Shown piece after piece: positions 24,959 through 50,461 of a stretch of DNA of 64,000 nt. Position 1 is the stretch's first letter. Each line of letters starts with the position of its first letter. A program made the translations under genes and the position numbers. The DNA is from an uncultured bacterium (GTDB lineage: Bacteria > Babelota > Babeliae > Babelales > RVW-14), in assembly GCA_963759805.1 (NCBI GenBank), contig CAVXAT010000005.1:1-64000 (forward strand), given 5' to 3'. Under the pieces are notes generated by a model that was not told where the DNA came from, searched no databases, and worked only from the letters and a program-made list of their open reading frames with translations.

Positions 24959-25144
24959 AGCTTGGTATCCCGATTTCAAATAGACTGACGCACCTAGAGT
25001 AGCATATAAAAAAATAAAATGATCCTCTTTGAAAAGATATCAGACATGTAAGAAATTACAAGGCTATTTAATTTAACCTTGATTCATTTAGCTTGTCAAA
25101 TCTCTGTTTTTTTGTTAAAAATCTAATATAATTCTTTATTTTGT

Positions 25145-25215
25145 TGGGAAGTCGTCTAATGGCAGGACCCTGGACTCTGACTCCAGTTATATAGGTTCGA
25201 ATCCTATCTTCCCAG
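25145..25215 (+). tRNA. tRNA-Gln(CTG)
   Basis: TGGGAAG/CTTCCCA acceptor, CTGGA-CTCTGAC-TCCAG, GGTTCGAATCC; no encoded CCA. Confidence 0.96.
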
Positions 25216-25368
25216 TTTTCGCCATTTAATGGCTTTATCTGAGCACATTATTCATACAATAATTCATTAGATAAATTCAAGTTCAAGGAAAATAATCTGT
25301 AACAAGCCCCAATAATTACATCCTCAAAAGTTTGATTTTATCAAAACACTGTACAGTGAAGCTCATTA

Positions 25369-36582: not shown

Positions 36583-36822
36583 ATGAAAGAAAGTAAAGTT
36601 AGATTGAGCTTTGATATTCCAGCTGAAGAACATATTGTATTAAAAAGCGAATGCGCACAATCAAGAATCGCTATGAAAGATTTTTTGCACGATTTAGTGT
36701 TAAAAGGAATACAGGAGTTAAGGGAAAAGCAACTACGGAAAAGACTAAAAAAGTCGATACAACAATCAAAAGAAGGCAAGGTTAAAAGCAGAGGTTCTTT
36801 TTCAAAGTACGTGGGACAATGA
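36583..36822 (+). CDS. Putative antitoxin (RHH-like)
   Basis: VRLSFDIP N-terminus; 4-nt overlap with the toxin gene. Confidence 0.65.
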   Translation: MKESKVRLSFDIPAEEHIVLKSECAQSRIAMKDFLHDLVLKGIQELREKQLRKRLKKSIQQSKEGKVKSRGSFSKYVGQ

Positions 36823-37115
36823 AATTTGAATTAGTTTTTACCGACCATGCTGATCAACAAATGGATGACATTGAAAAGAATAATAACAAAAGAGCAGCAT
36901 TAAAAGCTGTGCGTAAAATTTTGGGGTTTATGGAAAAAAACTTGCGGCATCCTTCATTGAATACTCACAAATATGATGTCTTAAATGGCCCAAATGATGA
37001 AGATGTTTTCGAATCCTATGCCCAGAATAAGACACCAGGAGCTTATCGCGTATTTTGGCATTATGGTCCGGGAAAAGGCAAGATCACCATTCTTGAAATT
37101 TGCCCCCATCCGTAA
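36819..37115 (+). CDS. RelE-superfamily toxin-like protein
   Basis: RHPSLNTH, FESYAQNKTPGAYRVFWHYGP, PHP. Confidence 0.75.
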   Translation: MKFELVFTDHADQQMDDIEKNNNKRAALKAVRKILGFMEKNLRHPSLNTHKYDVLNGPNDEDVFESYAQNKTPGAYRVFWHYGPGKGKITILEICPHP

Positions 37116-37177
37116 CGTATCAGGAAATACAATGAGGCAAAATAGTTAATATGGAAAAACATTAAGAGGATTTTTAA

Positions 37178-37567
37178 ATGGCTATTAAACGAATTGGCTT
37201 GTCATGGATCGGAACAACTGACATAAAGAAATCCAAGAACTTTTTCACTAACATCTTGGGTTTAAATGTTTTTGAAGAGCAACCAGAATATGGTTGGCTT
37301 GAGGTACAGGGTTTACAGAAGGGACAAACTCTTGGAATTGGGCTTGCAAGTCCCGAAAGCGGAATGCCTGCCGGAGTTAATGCTGTTGTTACGTTCGTTG
37401 TTGATAATTACGACAATATGAAGCAAGATCTTATGGAAAAGGGCGTAACGTTTTTTGGTGAACTCGCCGGCATCCCAGCTGTTCCACGTATGATTTGTTT
37501 TAAAGATCCTGATGGAAATACATTTCAAATAGTTGAAGAAACCGTTGGGCATACGGATAAAATCTAA
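37178..37567 (+). CDS. VOC / glyoxalase family protein
   Basis: FFTNILGL, FKDPDGNTFQIVE. Confidence 0.88.
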   Translation: MAIKRIGLSWIGTTDIKKSKNFFTNILGLNVFEEQPEYGWLEVQGLQKGQTLGIGLASPESGMPAGVNAVVTFVVDNYDNMKQDLMEKGVTFFGELAGIPAVPRMICFKDPDGNTFQIVEETVGHTDKI

Positions 37568-37574
37568 CAATACC

Positions 37575-38237
37575 TTAATGTTTCTTCTCCGGATTCCATT
37601 TACTTTTTGTTCCACATTTTGGACAAGTAACTTTATTGCAGCCTCCATCTTTAAATAAAGGTCTTTTACATTTTGGGCATGGTCTTGAATTTTCATCAAT
37701 CCAAGCTTTACTTAATTTTGAGGCTTCTTCGGATTTTTTTTCTTCCTCCATTTCTGCGCGTCTTTCTGCCTTTTTACAACTAATTTTAGGATCATGCAAT
37801 CTTAAACATTGGCAGCAATAAGTCTGATGACATTCTGGACATTCTATAATCCTAACTTCCACATCTTCATTTATGAATGCATACAGACAGTTATGGGTTG
37901 GGCAAAGTTTTGAGGCAGAATGCTTTACAAGTTCTAGATATTGAAGTTTTTTCATTATGCTACTATCACTGACTAGACGACCAAGCTCTTCTTGATTTAG
38001 ATATCGAGCACATTCGGGAAGTGGACATTTTGGACTTACACGATTTTCAATGCCAGCCGTAATTATTCCAGAAATGCATTCCAGGCAACATTCATGGCCG
38101 CAGGAGAGTTTGAAAAATGGAGAAGCCCCTTCTTCCTGATAACAAACCGGACACGTAGGACGCACAGCCATAGATGCTATGGATGGTGAACCGAGTGTCA
38201 AAAATATAAAGAACAACGTTTTGGCAAACTTGAACAT
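37575..38237 (-). CDS. Exported RING-IBR-RING (RBR, Ariadne-like) E3 ubiquitin ligase candidate
   Basis: GGAGG RBS, signal peptide, RING1 CPVC..CGH..CLEC..CP..EC, IBR CP..NC..CPEC..CCQC..H..C, Rcat CPKC..KDGGCNKVTC. Confidence 0.88.
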   Translation of the reverse strand: MFKFAKTLFFIFLTLGSPSIASMAVRPTCPVCYQEEGASPFFKLSCGHECCLECISGIITAGIENRVSPKCPLPECARYLNQEELGRLVSDSSIMKKLQYLELVKHSASKLCPTHNCLYAFINEDVEVRIIECPECHQTYCCQCLRLHDPKISCKKAERRAEMEEEKKSEEASKLSKAWIDENSRPCPKCKRPLFKDGGCNKVTCPKCGTKSKWNPEKKH

Positions 38238-38360
38238 TATAACCTCCAGATATATTTATTTTACTATATTTTATACACGAAATGATGGATATAGCATGCC
38301 CGAAAGGATAAAAATTTGCAAAAAGCATTCAAAATCCAATGAATTTGCCACAAATTAACT

Positions 38361-38567
38361 CTATTTATCGCTAAATTCTAACAAATCCCCTGGCTGGCAA
38401 TCAAGAACTTTACACAACGCCTCGAGCGTGGAGAATCTTATGGCTTTTGCTTTTCCGTTTTTTAGAATAGAAAGATTGGCTTCGGTGATTCCAACCTTTT
38501 CCGCAAGTTCATTGAGGCGCATCTTACGACGCGCCATCATTTCATCGAGTTTAACAATTATTTTCAT
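38361..38567 (-). CDS. Cro/C1-type HTH regulator (YozG-like)
   Basis: GITEANLSILKNGKAKAIRFSTLEALC..CQPGDLL. Confidence 0.92.
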   Translation of the reverse strand: MKIIVKLDEMMARRKMRLNELAEKVGITEANLSILKNGKAKAIRFSTLEALCKVLDCQPGDLLEFSDK

Positions 38568-38575
38568 GTTACCGC

Positions 38576-39124
38576 CTAAACAGTTAAATCTGATTCATTT
38601 TTTAAAGCATAAGCTTCTTGCATTAGCGAAGTAATTACAAGAAAAAATCCTACTACAAAAATATTTATGATATCATGCGAGGTAATCGAAACTTCAATTA
38701 CACGCTGTCCCACCGGATTAAAAAATGTGGTCACCAAGCTTAAAAGTGTGTGTTTAAGTGGAGCATACAAAGCCCATACCAAAGCTATGCGACTAACCTT
38801 TTGAAACAGTTGCAATAGATGAGACGAAAAGATTTCTCCTCTCTGATACAGCTTAAGAATTTTTATAAAATAAAAACATCCAACAAGAATCAACACACAA
38901 GAAATTCCATCAATCAGCAAATATAATATTTTTGATAATATTGGAAGATTCGCCAAGCTGGTAATGGCATCTGATGAATAATTAAACCCTACCCAAAATT
39001 CGTCGAGAGATTCACAATGTCCATTAATAAACCATCTATAAACAAATATGAAAATTATCAATGGCAAAATAATAAATTTAACAAAAAATTCCAGAAATTT
39101 TGCCCGACTTTTTAAATTTTTCAT
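38576..39124 (-). CDS. DUF2975 membrane protein
   Basis: Four hydrophobic segments, GEIFS, C-terminal LKNESDLTV, typical pairing with the HTH gene. Confidence 0.85.
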   Translation of the reverse strand: MKNLKSRAKFLEFFVKFIILPLIIFIFVYRWFINGHCESLDEFWVGFNYSSDAITSLANLPILSKILYLLIDGISCVLILVGCFYFIKILKLYQRGEIFSSHLLQLFQKVSRIALVWALYAPLKHTLLSLVTTFFNPVGQRVIEVSITSHDIINIFVVGFFLVITSLMQEAYALKNESDLTV

Positions 39125-39230: not shown

Positions 39231-39980
39231 ATTTATCTAATATTATTTACAAACACACCCAAAATAATTTACGATTTTTCAGTTACCAATAAATCAAATT
39301 TTTTATAAAAGGAGAAATGTTATGCGTATAACACCCAGAAAAATTCTATTTATATTCGCCATCTTCGTATGTACTCAATTATGTTTGCAGACCCCAATTT
39401 CTGCAGCAACATTTACCGTGACAAAAACATCTGATACATATCCCATAGGACAGACAGGACAGTTACGCTGGGCAATTCAACGGGCTAATCAGACCGCCGG
39501 AACAAATCAAATTAATTTTAATATCCCAGGAACTGGCCCTTTTGTTATTCAGCCGGTCCATGATCTTGATGCTATCACTAATCCTGTAATCATTAATGGC
39601 TACAGTCAACCGGGCGCAACGGAAAATACGCTTGCCACCGGCAACAATGCACATTTACTCATTGCCATGTATGGAGCAAACTATGCCACAGGCAATGCAT
39701 ATCAAGGCTCAGGCAACGGCCTATTTTTTTATCAAGGGTCTGATGGTTCTGTTGTAAAGGGTTTAGTTATTAGTGCATGGATCAATAACGGCATTGTTGT
39801 ATACAATGCAAACAATATCAATATAGTTGGAAATTTTATTGGCACAAAGGCAACGGGAACTGCTCAATTAGCAAATCAAACAGGAATATTTATCGAGTCC
39901 GGAAATAATACAACCATTGGATCCTCTATAGTGACCCCCATTGTCAAGACAAATTTTTAACTTATATTTCAGAATTTTTA

Positions 39981-40901
39981 TCAGGCCATTTGTATCCCCA
40001 TTGATTTATTTTGTTGAACGATGATTTTGCTATTACATACAAAAGCCAATGATTCGAAAGTAAAATCAGATTGGTCTACTGCAATGATAGCTCCATAGTA
40101 AACTTCATCTGGTTTTTTATATTCGAGTGATTGGTGAAAGCGTTCTCTATTATAAAAGTTGATATAGTTTTTTATAATTAATCGCGTCTCAGCAATGTTT
40201 TCAAGAACATAAAAACACAGTGCTTCATATTTAATAGTTCGCCAGAATCGTTCAATAATGATGTTGTCTGCCCATCGACCTATTCCATCCATACTAATTT
40301 TGATACCTTCTTTTTCTAAACGAGCAACCCATCTTTCACTTGTAAACTGGCACCCTTGATCACTATTTAAAATCTCAGGCTTACCGAGTACGAGAGCCAT
40401 TTCCAATGCTTCAAGACAAACGTCTGTATCGAGATATGGTGACAATGCCCATCCCATAATCTTGCGACTAAAAACATCGATAAGACAAACCAAATAAACA
40501 AACCCACCTCTTATTTTTACGTATGTGATATCTGTTTTCCAGACTTGGTTTGGGCGGCAAACTCGTAATCCTCTTAAAAGATATTTGTACACCTTGTGTT
40601 CCTTGTTTGGAATGCTAGTTTTTTTATAAGGGGCAACTGCACAAAGACCTGTCAACGTCATTAGCCGCTGTGTTCTTTTAATGTTGTGGTTAAAGCTTTT
40701 TTCGATAAGAACTTCGTGTATTTTTCGATATCCATAAAATGGATGTCTCTCATATTCGTTGCGTATCTCATCCATAATCACCTCGTCTTGGTTGTTGGCC
40801 TTCTTTGGCTTGTAATAAAGGCTACTTCGATTTATACCGAGCAGATCGCATTTTCTGGACAAGTTCAATTTGTTGTTGTGCTCAATCCATTGCTTGCGCA
40901 C
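39981..40901 (-). CDS. IS3 transposase OrfB (DDE)
   Basis: YGYRKI, WKTDITY, NSDQGCQF, DNIIIERFWRTIKYE; -1 frame relative to orfA with a TTTTTTA slippery site near 40931-40937. Confidence 0.95.
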   Translation of the reverse strand: MRKQWIEHNNKLNLSRKCDLLGINRSSLYYKPKKANNQDEVIMDEIRNEYERHPFYGYRKIHEVLIEKSFNHNIKRTQRLMTLTGLCAVAPYKKTSIPNKEHKVYKYLLRGLRVCRPNQVWKTDITYVKIRGGFVYLVCLIDVFSRKIMGWALSPYLDTDVCLEALEMALVLGKPEILNSDQGCQFTSERWVARLEKEGIKISMDGIGRWADNIIIERFWRTIKYEALCFYVLENIAETRLIIKNYINFYNRERFHQSLEYKKPDEVYYGAIIAVDQSDFTFESLAFVCNSKIIVQQNKSMGIQMA

Positions 40902-41565: not shown

Positions 41566-42501
41566 TTAATGCCCCCCGGGCTCATTGTTATAACTAATAT
41601 TTTTAAAGTACTTATTTTCTCAAGTTGCACTGTCTAGTTTTATGGGGTCAGTATACTCAAGACCCGCAGATCGCAATATTATTGCAGGAAGTTTTTTCTT
41701 TTTTAATGAATCATCATGCATCGTCGCCGATAATTCTCAAGGAACTGTAATCAAAGGAAACTATATCGGAACAAACGCCTCCGGCACTGCCGCGCTTGGC
41801 AACTCTCTTTCCGGAATAACATGCGCTGCATCAAATAATAGTGTTATTGGAGGATCAACACCGGCTGAAAGAAATATTATATCAGGACATGTCATCGTTG
41901 GCATATCTATTGAGAGTTCCTCAAACACACAAATTACGGGAAATTATATCGGAACAGATGCAAGTGGATCTTTGGCATTAGGTAATGCAAATGAAGGAAT
42001 TGGCATAATTGGCAGCGGTCTGGCAAACAGCGCTACCAACAACAGCATCACCGGCAATGTTATCTCAGGAAATTACATCGGCATAACGCTTGGATCAATT
42101 TCATCTCTTGGAGCAAATCAAAATACTATTCAAAACAATTACATAGGAACCGATCACACAGGAAATCTTGCACTTCCAAATAAGTATGGAATTGTCATCA
42201 ATGATAATGGCAATACGATAGGCGGAAACGCTTCTTCAAATCGCAATATTATTGCAGCAAACAGTGTTGGCGGAATTTTAATCTATGGCGGCGCGCAAAA
42301 TAATGTCATCCAGTATAATTACATTGGTCTTAATGCCTCATCTGCCCCTCTGCCAAACGGATATGGAATTCAATTGGGACTTCCCGGCGGAAAGGGTGCT
42401 GCTTCCACAAACTCCATTGCCAATAATTCATTTGGCGGCGGAAATAAGATAATAAATATATATTCATAATCACACTTTTTTATAAAAAGAAAGAAAAAAA
42501 C

Positions 42502-44267: not shown

Positions 44268-45329
44268 CTACAACACGCTCTTCGCCAATTTTATAAGCTC
44301 AGAGCATAAGTTACTAAGGTCTTTAGGGGAAACAAAAAGATTGAATTTTATACCATGAAGAAAACGCAGCTCCAATTTATTTAGCTCCTCTATACTAACT
44401 TTACCAACTTCGGCATAAACTTTGTTCCAGAAAGGTCGGTCAATGCACCATTTAGCAGCCAAAACCATTATTGCCAAAAATGTTTTGAAATCCATCGAGA
44501 TGTTATCAGTAAAAATATTTTTACCATTCAGTTCACTCAACCTTTGAATGTATATAAGAGCTACCAAGTAACAAACAGGAGGACATTTAAAGTGTTGTTT
44601 TATATGTTGTAAATATTGAATTGTTGGGATAATATAGCCAGCACTACTTTTAATTTTTACTCCGCCCTTTTCAATCATTTCCCTAATTTTTTCAAAAGCA
44701 AAAAGATGAATGCTGCTGAATTCATTATAAATACATGCCGGATTATTAATTGCAAAATGGAGATCCGCACCATGATCCAAAAGAACTTTTACAATTCCAT
44801 ACTTTCCATTCTTTGCAGCCAAAAGTAGAGGTGTTAATCCATGCAAATTGTGTATTGGAAATTCTATTACAGCATCAACATTTGCACCTGCGTCCAAGAG
44901 AATTTGCACAACATTTTCATTACCTGAAATTACAGCATAATGAAGAGCTGTAAATCCGTAAAATAAATGAAATCGTGTTGTAATTCTTAAATTGATATTT
45001 CCGCCTGACTTTAAAAATCTAGAGATAAGATCTATTCTGTTATCTTTTATAGCTAAAAAAAGCTCATCAAGACTTAGTTGATCCGGACTTACTTGAAGAC
45101 TATCAGGACTTATTTGAAGGCTATCAGGACTTATTTGAAGACTATCGGGACTCATTTGCAAGACTGATTTAATTTTCTGTCTTTCTGGTTTAACGTTAAT
45201 TAGCGCCTCTTGCGGATCATTTTCCAACAACACCTCGCTAGATTCCAATTGTCTTTTCATTGAAAAAACAGGAAGCACACCAACAGTTGAAAGTAGTAAA
45301 AAAATAGAAATAAATTTGTTAAATTTCAC
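44268..45329 (-). CDS. Exported ankyrin-repeat protein with PHO80/PREG-type cyclin domain
   Basis: GGAGG RBS plus GTG, signal peptide, ankyrin repeats, then YLQHI..LVALIYIQRL..LAAKW..D..NKVYAEVG..ELNKLELRFL..FNLFV. Confidence 0.85.
   Translation of the reverse strand: MKFNKFISIFLLLSTVGVLPVFSMKRQLESSEVLLENDPQEALINVKPERQKIKSVLQMSPDSLQISPDSLQISPDSLQVSPDQLSLDELFLAIKDNRIDLISRFLKSGGNINLRITTRFHLFYGFTALHYAVISGNENVVQILLDAGANVDAVIEFPIHNLHGLTPLLLAAKNGKYGIVKVLLDHGADLHFAINNPACIYNEFSSIHLFAFEKIREMIEKGGVKIKSSAGYIIPTIQYLQHIKQHFKCPPVCYLVALIYIQRLSELNGKNIFTDNISMDFKTFLAIMVLAAKWCIDRPFWNKVYAEVGKVSIEELNKLELRFLHGIKFNLFVSPKDLSNLCSELIKLAKSVL
45075..45161 (-). repeat. 21-bp tandem repeat, four copies
   Basis: Encodes QMSPDSL-QISPDSL-QISPDSL-QVSPDQL. 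Confidence 0.9.
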
Positions 45330-45582
45330 AAAAATAACCTCCCAATTCAATTTTAAGTTAAAAAAAGCAGAAACAAATAGCTAATTTTTCTTAGCTAGAT
45401 TAAGATTAACACATTCAGCAACAATTACAAGTAGAATTTACTTTTTACGCTTTTTATTAAATTACACGTTTTTTTCGACATAATTCTTGATAAAAACCAA
45501 TGTTTCAATAATATAAAGCGTACTGTGTAAAAACATATAAGGTAAAAACATATAAGTAAGATATCCTCAGCATCCAGGCAAC

Positions 45583-46846: not shown

Positions 46847-49800
46847 TCATTTAAATTCTCGAATGCGTTTATTCGGATGTAACCGGTATGGAGTTAATGC
46901 TTGTTTAATTTTTGCAGCAATGGCGGCTAGAGCAATGTGAACGGGATCTGCGTCATTTGGATTTCCAACCAATCCCTTGTATACAATAGAAAGCAAAACC
47001 GCATATCTTATCGCGTCAGCATGATTTGTAATGGGTGTGGATATCCCATTAAGTACGACATCAAACTCCTCATCACTGTAAAAAAATTTCAGTGTCTTTT
47101 CTCTCGTCTGACTAAAAACGTAGACAACAACAGGACACTTCGGATCATCATTAAACATTATAATCGGCTTTTCCTTTGTCAAAATACCTATTGACTCTTT
47201 ACGAATATTTTCTGTTTTCAATGGAAATGGATAATCGTGTAATTCAGCATACCGTATCACACCGGGTAAATCACTTTTATCCTTTGTACCATATCCGGAT
47301 GCATCACAGATCAAATGAAGATTTACCCTGCGCCGCAGCAGAGGCGGAACCGGTAAGTTAAATTTATGACCGGCATCGGTCAGTTGCAAGAAAGGTTGCT
47401 CTCTTAATGGGGGTATAATTCCTGATACATGATACAAAGGATTACCAAAATACCCAGGCTGTAAAGGTATTTTATCCTTATCCTGTAATCCAGTATCCTT
47501 ACCAACCTGTGCACCACCAAAAAATAATTGTCCCAGGACCCCTGCTTGCGGATCCAATAAATTATCGATTGTAGGTTTATAATAAGAATAAATCATACGA
47601 ACAACAGTTCCAGCAACGCCTTGAATGGCATTTGTCTTTTTATTCAGCTCCAGAAATAGGCGTTCTTTATCGATAGCAAATGCAGACCCCCATGTTCCCA
47701 TCAGGTACCAAAGTGGCGGCTCGGGATGTAACGTTGCAATAGCGCCATTATCAAAATTAGCCCATGCATATTCCGGCTTGGTCCACACCCCTAACTGTTC
47801 ACTCCCAACTTCATAAGGAGAAAATTCATGCCACCAAAATTTATCTTCTGCTTCCTCATCTACTGTTTTTGCCTGCTTTCTTTCCTCCTCCGAACATACA
47901 CGCCCAACAGCAGTGGCTATAGGAAACGGATATTTAAGTGATTGCAGCTGGTTGTCACGAATACTCGATAGCTTTAAAACATTGAAAGGCAATTCAGCTA
48001 AAAAACCTCGGTACAGCAAAAATCCATAAAAATCAACAAGCGACAGAGAAGCTCCCGTATCGCTGTGAAATTTAACAACGCCCGCAAGATTACTCAAATC
48101 CTCCTGACTCAACGGACGTGAAAAATCTTTTAATTGCTGTTTTATTTTATTAACAAAATCATCATAAGGAGCTTTTTCAGCATCATATGCAAGGTAAGGG
48201 AACAGCATCCATGTTGAACCGGAAAGAGTTGTCATATAGGCTACAGCATCAAATAACCCCATTTTTTTTAATTCTCCAACAAAACCTAATGTCGCAATCT
48301 GGGCACGGCATCCACCACCGCTACATGCAACCCCTATTTTGGGGGAAGAAGATTCGAGAACTTTATGTAATAGCGCAATTTCCCCTGGCGTAAGCATATT
48401 GCTGCTCTTGTCAACAAAGTTATGCAAACAAGGCACTACCTTTTGAGCTTGGCGCTTATCTATAAATTGATTTTCTTCAACACAGATATCGCCTACGTTT
48501 CTAATAGGGTCTTTAATCGTTTCTGGCAAGAATACGTTATTAAGTTCTTGCTCAACCTTATCCCATCCAGGACAAACATCGTTACGTAAATCTTCCGGCT
48601 TTAGCTTTGCAGCCAAATAGGTTAAAATAAATATCGGCAGCACCTCATCCGGCGCCCAATCCAACGCATTAATAATGAAATTGTATGCATTTGGAGAGCC
48701 TTGAAACACGGAACCTGGGGTGTCCAGTCTGGCAGCAACTCTTTCTCCAAAAACGATATCGGATAACTGGCGCTTCAAAGTTGTATCGCTTTTCAAAATT
48801 TCACTAATTTGTTCCTTTTGTAGCAGCTTTTTTTCCGGAATCCGATCAATAATATCGGCAAGCAAATTTCTATCAAAAAATACCGGCGCACCCATATTTT
48901 TGATTGATTCTTTTAAAAGCTCTATCTGTTGCATAAGAAATGATTTTTCTAAATATCCCCCATAATAGGCAGCAAGCACTGCTACAGACTGAACCATCCA
49001 TTCGGTCATAGCTCCAACTAATGGAATCATTCCTCTTGTTTGCTCAACAGCCTGACCAACATGCTGCTGGGCCACCCCAATGCCTTTGATCATCTCATTT
49101 ACAATATCAAATAAAGCAGAGCTTTTATATTGATTTACATGGTCCCTATTTAACTTGATGTATTTAACAATCTTATCGAATTCAGCCTCAGGGTAAGATC
49201 TAAATATACCGGGATCTGCATATCCTAACTGTTCAGAACAAAAATCTAATTCACGGGCCAATTGTTCATCTATGTTGTATGAAATCCTATCGGGAATTGA
49301 ATAATACCACATGGTTCCATCACACCATTCGTGAACAATATTACCACCCTCATGTTCAACAGCTCTGTTTAAAAAAACCGGTGGAACAGAGGGCTTGACA
49401 GGCTCCTCTGGCGATCCAGTTGGCTTGGCAGCCGGTGCAACAGATGGTTTGCCAGGTTTTGTAAAAACACAAGCCAGGTCAATATTCAAATAATAGTGCT
49501 GATCAATACAGGCAATGGTTTTCGGTAATGAACCCAAAACACACAGAAGATCTCCACCGATACTAAAGCTTGTCGCTGGACAACTGCTTCCATCATATGT
49601 AAAACATTCAATATTTACAATTTTCAACCAATTTCGATTTTCATCAAAACAAGACGCTATTTTGCGCAGCGTCTGGAGGTGAACTTCTTTGGAATAAAAG
49701 TTATAAATTCTATGAGAAACACAAGGCATTAGACCTCTTTTTTTCTCAGGTGTATCTCTAAGCGCAGGAGGCGTTGCCGGATTAAGCAGTATAATTGAAT

Positions 49801-50461
49801 GCACAGTGATTTTAGCTTCATTTAATTTCGCCATAAGCTGCTCAGTTGCTGTCTTATTGGAACTAATGACTATCGACCGGACAACGTCTTGGTGTTTCAA
49901 TGATCTAATAACATCAACGGCATTAGTTTTGCAATCAAAGCGAACCTCAAACGGAGCCCGACCCGGCTGGGGACCTTCATTGATTTGTTGTCGCAAAGAA
50001 GTACAAAAAGGATTCTGTCCTTGGGCATAGGGAGGAAGATCGACATTTAAAAATATAACATGAATAGAGCTCCCTTCTTGCAAACCCTCGACAAGGGTGC
50101 GAGCAAAAGACCCGTTTACAGCCTCTTCAGCCCTCCTTGGAGCCAGCATCATTTCCTCATATTTCATTGGATTATAACTATCAATCATTAAACCATGCAG
50201 GATCGAGGTGGCCATATAGGTTTGTTCTTCAGGAGGCGGGGTTGGTACGGGATGTAGCACCGGTACCGCTACCGTTCCCAATTTTCCTTGTAATTCACCA
50301 AGCTTGCCTTGTAATCCATTCAATTTATTTTTGAGCTCTTGCAGAGACGTTTTCAGAGTCCCCAACTTTTCTTTGAGCGGATCCACCCCCATTCCCACTG
50401 CAAAATTGCTTGAAAGTGCAATTAAAATAAAAAGTCTCATCATCAAAAATTTACACTTCAT
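46847..50461 (-). CDS. Exported protein with cPLA2 / lysophospholipase catalytic domain and N-terminal leucine-heptad tag
   Basis: SGGGCRA, TLSGSTW, PFPIATA, EFSPYEVG, GTWGSAFA, LTDAG..NLPVPPLL. Confidence 0.88.
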   Translation of the reverse strand: MKCKFLMMRLFILIALSSNFAVGMGVDPLKEKLGTLKTSLQELKNKLNGLQGKLGELQGKLGTVAVPVLHPVPTPPPEEQTYMATSILHGLMIDSYNPMKYEEMMLAPRRAEEAVNGSFARTLVEGLQEGSSIHVIFLNVDLPPYAQGQNPFCTSLRQQINEGPQPGRAPFEVRFDCKTNAVDVIRSLKHQDVVRSIVISSNKTATEQLMAKLNEAKITVHSIILLNPATPPALRDTPEKKRGLMPCVSHRIYNFYSKEVHLQTLRKIASCFDENRNWLKIVNIECFTYDGSSCPATSFSIGGDLLCVLGSLPKTIACIDQHYYLNIDLACVFTKPGKPSVAPAAKPTGSPEEPVKPSVPPVFLNRAVEHEGGNIVHEWCDGTMWYYSIPDRISYNIDEQLARELDFCSEQLGYADPGIFRSYPEAEFDKIVKYIKLNRDHVNQYKSSALFDIVNEMIKGIGVAQQHVGQAVEQTRGMIPLVGAMTEWMVQSVAVLAAYYGGYLEKSFLMQQIELLKESIKNMGAPVFFDRNLLADIIDRIPEKKLLQKEQISEILKSDTTLKRQLSDIVFGERVAARLDTPGSVFQGSPNAYNFIINALDWAPDEVLPIFILTYLAAKLKPEDLRNDVCPGWDKVEQELNNVFLPETIKDPIRNVGDICVEENQFIDKRQAQKVVPCLHNFVDKSSNMLTPGEIALLHKVLESSSPKIGVACSGGGCRAQIATLGFVGELKKMGLFDAVAYMTTLSGSTWMLFPYLAYDAEKAPYDDFVNKIKQQLKDFSRPLSQEDLSNLAGVVKFHSDTGASLSLVDFYGFLLYRGFLAELPFNVLKLSSIRDNQLQSLKYPFPIATAVGRVCSEEERKQAKTVDEEAEDKFWWHEFSPYEVGSEQLGVWTKPEYAWANFDNGAIATLHPEPPLWYLMGTWGSAFAIDKERLFLELNKKTNAIQGVAGTVVRMIYSYYKPTIDNLLDPQAGVLGQLFFGGAQVGKDTGLQDKDKIPLQPGYFGNPLYHVSGIIPPLREQPFLQLTDAGHKFNLPVPPLLRRRVNLHLICDASGYGTKDKSDLPGVIRYAELHDYPFPLKTENIRKESIGILTKEKPIIMFNDDPKCPVVVYVFSQTREKTLKFFYSDEEFDVVLNGISTPITNHADAIRYAVLLSIVYKGLVGNPNDADPVHIALAAIAAKIKQALTPYRLHPNKRIREFK

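Follow-up and report, generated by a model that had tools for sequence, protein, structure and literature searches.

We identified a gene for a small RBR-type protein in the genome of an uncultured bacterium of the Babeliales (Dependentiae). It lies in a window of 64,000 bases, the whole stretch of DNA analysed, taken from contig C5 of a 1.50-Mb assembly that comprises 21 contigs and is 88.7% complete; among relatives within the Babeliales, genome size ranges over 0.8-1.8 Mb. The gene (37575..38237, reverse strand) begins with ATG and encodes 220 amino acids followed by a stop codon (37575-37577), with no internal stops. A Shine-Dalgarno-like GGAGG, read from the sequence, is found 5 nt upstream of the start codon (38243..38247, reverse strand), and the open reading frame (ORF) is uninterrupted by introns, in keeping with the bacterial ribosome-binding site and intronless structure that a first-pass annotation of this DNA had described. 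The GC content of the gene is 0.38, against 0.35-0.40 across the contigs of the assembly. A scan of 37300-38700 for promoters and terminators returned three promoter-like sites, with 4.4 expected, and no terminators. A search of public sequencing runs returned one DNA run, with a 0.10 share of the query words, and no RNA run; two 151-base contigs from the DNA run place at 36800-36920 and 37055-37219, outside the gene. An operon with an upstream pair of same-strand genes (HTH_26/DUF2975) was considered and rejected, as the pair has no counterpart beside the orthologue at a syntenic locus (L009).

The gene is located in a variable stretch of about 20 kb, which begins at a tRNA-Gln gene (25144-25216) and runs to about 45500. 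Among its contents are genes for an ankyrin protein and a PAF-acetylhydrolase-like lipase, an IS3-type transposase apparently inside a beta-helix gene, and a gene combining ankyrin repeats with a cyclin domain. An M15 peptidase, an 875-aa ORF without a family, a truncated PALP enzyme, and a BAAT-type hydrolase are also encoded there, and much of this effector-rich DNA is missing from two syntenic loci, L009 and L010. On either side, the flanking DNA is collinear with that of L009 and L010, where an orthologue lies between the flanks with less surrounding DNA, giving three genomes of the genus, the source genome included, with the gene between conserved flanks. This arrangement favors vertical descent within the genus and disfavors a chimeric assembly. 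Of the three further genomes available for the genus, two carry a full-length orthologue, which in one case is divided between the ends of two contigs; the third genome (91% complete) and the other families searched yielded none.

Since large-cluster databases place the family overwhelmingly among eukaryotes, eukaryotic contamination or chimeric assembly might be suspected. We consider this barely credible given the lack of introns, the GGAGG site, the genome-like GC content, the tight bacterial neighbors on both sides, the identically flanked orthologue in two congeneric genomes, and the length of the contig carrying the gene (131,584 bases). The gene is genuine and bacterial, and it belongs to the Babeliales (Dependentiae).

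Homology to eukaryotic RBR ligases

The Pfam IBR model (PF01485; cut-off 24.3 bits) matches the protein at 34.7 bits, with an E-value of 1.8e-8. Two models of the Rcat type, IBR_1 at 25.4 bits and IBR_2 at 22.7 bits, stay just short of their cut-off of 27, the Pfam RING models are weak and also under cut-off (E 0.013-0.014), and an NCBIfam scan of the protein gave chance-level matches only. A phmmer search of PDB sequences placed human ARIH1 first (E 2.4e-15), followed by ARIH2, HOIP/RNF31, Parkin, and HOIL-1. Residues 24-212 align with ARIH1 181-369 (of 557) in one stretch, so RING1, IBR, and Rcat are collinear in the two proteins. The first-pass annotation had read RING1, IBR, and Rcat in 220 residues and had pointed to an Ariadne-like motif. 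The Pfam IBR match over cut-off, the collinear ARIH1 alignment, and the fold matches described below bear out the former, and the motif appears in the printed ARIH1 alignment from phmmer, where WIDENSRPCPKC..KDGGCNKVTC stands against WIAANTKECPKC..KDGGCNHMVC.

An AlphaFold run on an alignment of eight orthologues reached a pLDDT of 65.7, with the IBR under 50, and was replaced by a run on 61 sequences. With these 61 relatives the pLDDT is 92.2 and the pTM 0.70, and the Rcat blocks score 88-96. Foldseek returned 50 PDB matches at E <= 0.001, which are RBR ligases throughout among the matches listed and include ARIH2 (2e-9), ARIH1, HOIL-1, RNF216, HOIP, and Parkin; the TM-scores, at 0.21-0.46, are low, as expected for three small domains that differ in their arrangement. 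VIA-align superposed 177 residues of the model (24-216) on ARIH1 181-375 from its UbcH7~Ub complex, with a Z-score of 8.2 and an rmsd of 9.6. The RING1 fold compares with RBR RING1 domains at Z-scores of 8.0-8.6, and its match to the RING finger of human UbcM4-interacting protein 4 (1wim) has a Z-score of 8.6 and an rmsd of 3.0 over 89 residues. The protein is homologous in both sequence and fold to eukaryotic RBR ligases and consists of a signal-peptide-like leader and a bare RING1-IBR-Rcat core.

Domain architecture and a half-length Rcat

The N-terminus (residues 1-21; 38175..38237, reverse strand) resembles a signal peptide, as had been claimed from the first reading, with K3 and K6, a hydrophobic run at 7-16 (TLFFIFLTLG), and S-I-A at 19-21. 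These features were judged by eye and hydropathy, and they are kept in all eight orthologues; residues 5-15 are helical in the AlphaFold model. RING1 follows at residues 29-76 (38010..38153, reverse strand) as a C3HC4 domain with ligands C29, C32, C46, H48, C51, C54, C71, and C76, seven of which are invariant among 61 sequences, with H48 kept in at least 90%. The IBR is of the C6HC type (residues 112-154; 37776..37904, reverse strand), with ligands C112, C117, C133, C136, C141, C144, H148, and C154. Its ligand columns are invariant in the 61-sequence alignment, and the profile match in the genome spans 37776-37934. RING1 and IBR together retain the complete set of 16 zinc ligands; among orthologues, one carries Tyr at H48 and another Trp at C136. 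A 30-residue helix (residues 154-183; 37689..37778, reverse strand), modeled with a pLDDT of 96-98, links the IBR to the Rcat.

Only half of an Rcat is encoded (residues 187-208; 37614..37679, reverse strand). It comprises the first zinc site, C187, C190, C205, and C208, arranged around Cys200, and its pattern, C187-x2-C190-x9-C200-x4-C205-x2-C208, aligns with CPKC...GGCNHMVC of ARIH1. The ligands of this site and G199 are invariant among the 61 sequences. The Cys200 codon (37638..37640, reverse strand) occupies the catalytic-Cys position of RBR ligases and aligns with the Cys of the ARIH1 motif 'GGCNH', the catalytic Cys357. Lys202 aligns with the His of the same motif, and the orthologues carry K, A, or R there. 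The canonical F-C-W-x-C ... H ... C continuation is replaced by K-W-N-P-E-K-K-H and a stop, within a C-terminal tail (residues 209-220, GTKSKWNPEKKH; 37578..37613, reverse strand) that stands where the second zinc site would be. Only 12 residues follow Cys208, and the second site (C-x2-C ... H/C ... C) is therefore missing; no Cys follows C208 in any of the eight orthologues. No further domain, including the Ariadne autoinhibitory domain, follows the Rcat, as judged from Pfam and from the end of the ORF at residue 220. The retained catalytic Cys with Lys in place of the next His, the loss of the last zinc ligands, and the lack of an autoinhibitory domain had all been noted in the first-pass annotation, and each withstood this closer comparison.

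Of the features expected of an RBR protein, RING1, IBR, and an Rcat with a Cys at the catalytic position are present, in collinear order and with a helical IBR-Rcat linker. The missing second zinc site and the His-to-Lys change could each weaken or abolish catalysis.

Conservation of the short Rcat

The gene product and seven further proteins form a family of 220-226 aa with 46-65% identity and the same end point. Their alignment has 60 invariant columns, among them Cys200, G199, and N215, E217, and K218 of the tail. A profile built from the eight matched 8573 proteins at E <= 0.001 among 1.84 billion representatives, the family's own representative scoring 4e-109 and the next best match 8e-44. 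A regular expression applied to the best 150 of the 8573 detected a short Rcat with an F-x-W-N/D-type ending in further proteins (P0012, P0016, P0027, P0032, P0047, P0053, P0062, P0066, P0082, P0111, and others); the flagged sequences P0102, P0142, P0152, and L004 count as partial variants, not as genuine short forms. A homologue search for longer relatives gave 388 candidates, none of them at E <= 1e-5.

We placed the short forms in a FastTree phylogeny (LG+gamma) of 195 RBR cores and 192 columns, the cores being those left from 225 matches after removal of incomplete cores and identical duplicates. The 220-aa family forms a clade of 12 tips (support 0.97) nested in a clade of 17 tips (0.94), every one of which has a short Rcat, although the aligned columns included the tail, which may contribute to the cohesion of the larger clade. 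This clade includes a 220-aa ORF from another Dependentiae family (L046, genome G043). Short forms also occur elsewhere in the tree, so the second half of the Rcat may have been lost more than once.

An Rcat shorter than that of canonical RBRs could point to a decaying remnant, that is, a recently truncated and non-functional gene. We find this highly improbable, as all eight orthologues share the end point and a conserved tail despite their divergence, the 17-tip clade reaches another family of the phylum, the reading frame is intact, and the downstream DNA does not contain the missing half. A convergent glyoxalase-family gene, whose stop lies 7 nt from that of the RBR gene, leaves no room for it. 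Judged from these comparisons, the short, predicted one-zinc Rcat is a conserved, clade-level state and not damage. The solution structure of ARIH1 RING2 (1wd2), one of the phmmer matches, is reported to have bound only one zinc, which would fit a one-zinc Rcat as a stable fold.

In the wider family, 194 of the 195 cores have Cys at the position of Cys200, although this residue does not serve as a zinc ligand. The His position is far more variable (H in 114, K in 19, Y in 17), even among members with a full Rcat. The first two RING1 cysteines enclose a hydrophobic residue that contacts the E2, and 182 of the 195 cores have I, V, or L there.

RBR genes across the Dependentiae

The gene is not a lone oddity but one of many in the phylum. 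PF01485 was detected in 46 of 261 Dependentiae genomes, in 45 of them over cut-off; the matches cover 32 of the 189 high-quality genomes and 31 of 145 genera, and the model was over cut-off in none of 14 control genomes. A search with the short-form alignment matched 44 of the 261 genomes at E <= 1e-10, with up to eight matches per genome. Two Candidatus Babeliales orthologues bear the NCBI label 'IBR domain-containing protein'. A strongly hydrophobic N-terminal window is present in 40 of 45 distinct RBR ORFs from Dependentiae loci and in 119 of the 149 profile hits P0010-P0158. The same measure is positive for 435 of 914 ORFs of at least 200 aa in the source genome (48%), so it is enriched in RBR ORFs yet not specific to them.

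The source genome encodes a second RBR protein, P0038 (315 aa; genome G000, contig C1:355138-356085, forward strand; L011 1219-2166). P0038 has a complete two-zinc Rcat and no hydrophobic leader, and it is 35% identical to the 220-aa protein over residues 25-211. Directly upstream (L011 77-1024, forward strand) is another 315-aa ORF, in which an N-terminal RING-like motif and ankyrin repeats can be made out by eye. A block of about 1 kb around this RING-ankyrin ORF has a GC content of 0.45, compared with about 0.37 for the genome, and may be a more recent transfer. Tandem RBR genes were observed in two other genomes, with five in G242 (contig C1:585000-600200) and three in G194 (contig C2:76000-83000). 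Such clustering within 7-15 kb suggests local expansion of the gene family.

The first-pass annotation had described RBR ligases as in essence a eukaryotic family, and the large ESM-Atlas clusters nearest to the protein agree, being 100% Eukaryota apart from one Nucleocytoviricota (giant-virus) cluster. Only four named eukaryotic sequences are in the tree, three of which group together (support 0.87). A Tetrahymena RBR domain (P0099) pairs with a Dependentiae RBR ORF (L024, G053:C1), with support of 0.98. On the tree topology, this could be a trace of transfer between a ciliate and a bacterium, or else a long-branch effect.

Export and a possible role in the host

Cultured members of the Dependentiae are described as obligate intracellular parasites of protists (PMC6561590). 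The source genome encodes signal peptidase I, three secretins, and two T2SSE ATPases, one ATPase being beside a secretin. A VirB4-family type IV secretion ATPase was not found in the 88.7%-complete assembly, nor were DsbA and DsbB. Searches of the same assembly for E2 (UQ_con), ubiquitin, and U-box genes, run without a positive control, found none, and one F-box-like gene is present. With neither E2 nor ubiquitin found in the genome, the protein would need a host. In one cultured representative of the Dependentiae, 44% of the coding sequences are reported to carry signal peptides, with ankyrin-repeat proteins the most prominent over-represented group among these, and vesicles are proposed for this relative (PMC6561590). 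Genes neighboring ours are themselves eukaryote-like, encoding ankyrin, cyclin-domain, and cPLA2-like proteins. The presence of signal peptidase I, secretins, and T2SSE ATPases, with no VirB4 found, makes Sec export followed by secretin or vesicle release the likeliest route.

On balance we lean, at slightly better than even chances, towards the protein being a minimal, Sec-exported RBR effector whose Cys200 accepts ubiquitin from an E2 of the host. It would be cleaved near residue 21 during Sec export and would leave the bacterium through a secretin-type system or vesicles to reach the host cytosol. There, RING1 would bind host E2~ubiquitin, and ubiquitin would pass to Cys200 as a thioester and then to a target. 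The one-zinc Rcat would be the working form of the whole clade. Having no autoinhibitory or substrate-binding domain, such a ligase would be constitutively active, and its specificity may be low or its aim provided by the conserved basic tail. The first-pass annotation had offered two readings, a constitutively active minimal ligase or an E2 decoy, and as a pair these are plausible on the architecture seen here.

The second of them may be framed as an E2~ubiquitin trap: a secreted protein whose RING1 binds host E2~Ub, with ubiquitin not passed on or the thioester stalled. It would titrate UbcH7-type E2s or block host RBR/cullin pathways. The missing second zinc site, the change of His to Lys, Ala, or Arg in all eight orthologues, the lack of a substrate-binding domain, and the full conservation of RING1 are what such a trap might look like. 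However, a pure E2 binder needs neither Cys200 nor G199 nor the first Rcat zinc site, all of which are invariant. The His position varies in full-Rcat bacterial RBRs as well, so a missing His does not set the short form apart, and the genome also retains a full-Rcat RBR. The near-universal retention of a non-ligand Cys200, together with the invariant G199 and the variability of the His position among full-Rcat members, speaks more for a functioning thioester ligase than for a protein that only binds E2, and we regard the trap as unlikely, though it is the main rival.

Alternatively, the RBR gene may have given rise to a Cys-rich protein of the envelope or periplasm, with a metal-binding or structural role unrelated to ubiquitin. 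A Sec-type leader alone reaches only the periplasm, and the VirB4 search was negative. We think this quite improbable. The conserved positions are exactly those that a functioning RBR would keep, namely the zinc ligands, the catalytic Cys, and the hydrophobic residue of RING1, and the adjoining genes for ankyrin, cyclin-domain, and cPLA2-like proteins have a eukaryotic character. In addition, leaders are reported on ankyrin and other host-directed proteins in the phylum (PMC6561590).

Comparison with known ligases

Ariadne-type ligases (ARIH1/HHARI and ARIH2) provide the best sequence match, 189 residues against 189, and the best fold matches, and they share the W-x3-N-x3-CPKC...GGC motif around the catalytic Cys. 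In contrast to them, the bacterial protein has no Ariadne domain and no N-terminal acidic or UBA-like region, retains only the first Rcat zinc site, has Lys for His, carries a signal-peptide-like leader, and is encoded in a bacterial genome. With no Ariadne domain and an Rcat that is short of one defining feature, it is best described as an RBR variant nearest to Ariadne rather than as a member of that group. HOIL-1, RNF216, HOIP, and Parkin, with Foldseek E-values of 1e-8 to 1e-4, share RING1, IBR, and a Cys-bearing Rcat hairpin but have a second Rcat zinc site and accessory domains, neither of which occurs in the bacterial protein. In HOIL-1 and RNF216 the second Rcat zinc site is described as an unusual cluster (PMC9834252). 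Closer to home, full-Rcat RBRs of the Dependentiae (including P0038) have the same three-domain core, and most have hydrophobic N-termini. Unlike the short form, they retain the second zinc site (F-C-[WYL]-x-C...), and long extensions at the C-terminus are usual among them.

Known bacterial E3 effectors include RING/U-box mimics, the HECT-like SopA and NleL, the NEL enzyme IpaH, SidC, and SidE. The likeness to these lies in the proposed role, that of a secreted protein redirecting host ubiquitin. They are RING/U-box adaptors or have folds unrelated to eukaryotic thioester ligases, whereas the bacterial mini RBR is a true RBR homologue. In a full-text collection that covers few subscription journals, we found no report of a bacterial RBR ligase; the words IBR and RBR are absent from the main text of a study on ubiquitin-related expansions in Chlamydiae.

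We tentatively propose, with rather less than even confidence, that the Dependentiae have a phylum-wide, Sec-exported set of eukaryote-derived RBR ubiquitin ligases and are the first bacteria known to employ this class of thioester-forming E3, and that the monophyletic mini-RBRs of about 200 residues work with a one-zinc Rcat. If they do, RBR catalysis would require neither a second zinc finger in the Rcat nor the catalytic His nor any autoinhibitory module. An active protein would also add a third eukaryotic E3 class to the bacterial repertoire and would imply heavy reliance on host ubiquitin in a phylum of protist parasites that has received little study. The half-Rcat protein would be the smallest RBR yet, with about 195 mature residues, five predicted zinc sites, and no autoinhibition, and could be used for studying the passage of ubiquitin from E2 to the ligase cysteine. 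If it is inactive, it may be a natural E2~Ub trap, which would also be useful.

Other genes in the window

Several further genes of the window are of interest in their own right. Two short ORFs of 79 and 98 aa (36583-36822 and 36819-37115, forward strand) overlap by 4 nt in a toxin-antitoxin-like layout, and neither has a Pfam family at E <= 0.001. An opposite-strand IS3-type transposase (rve, HTH_21) apparently interrupts a NosD/Beta_helix gene (39322-39960, 39981-40901, 41642-42469). The ankyrin-cyclin gene (44268-45350, reverse strand) encodes a 360-aa protein with ankyrin repeats and a cyclin domain (Pfam Cyclin, E 3e-15) of eukaryote-like fold; the syntenic gene at L009 (3275-4453) has ankyrin repeats and a C-terminal RING-like motif instead. 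Beyond the variable stretch, 46847-50461 (reverse strand) encodes a 1204-aa protein with a eukaryote-type cytosolic phospholipase A2/lysophospholipase domain (PLA2_B, E 6e-22).
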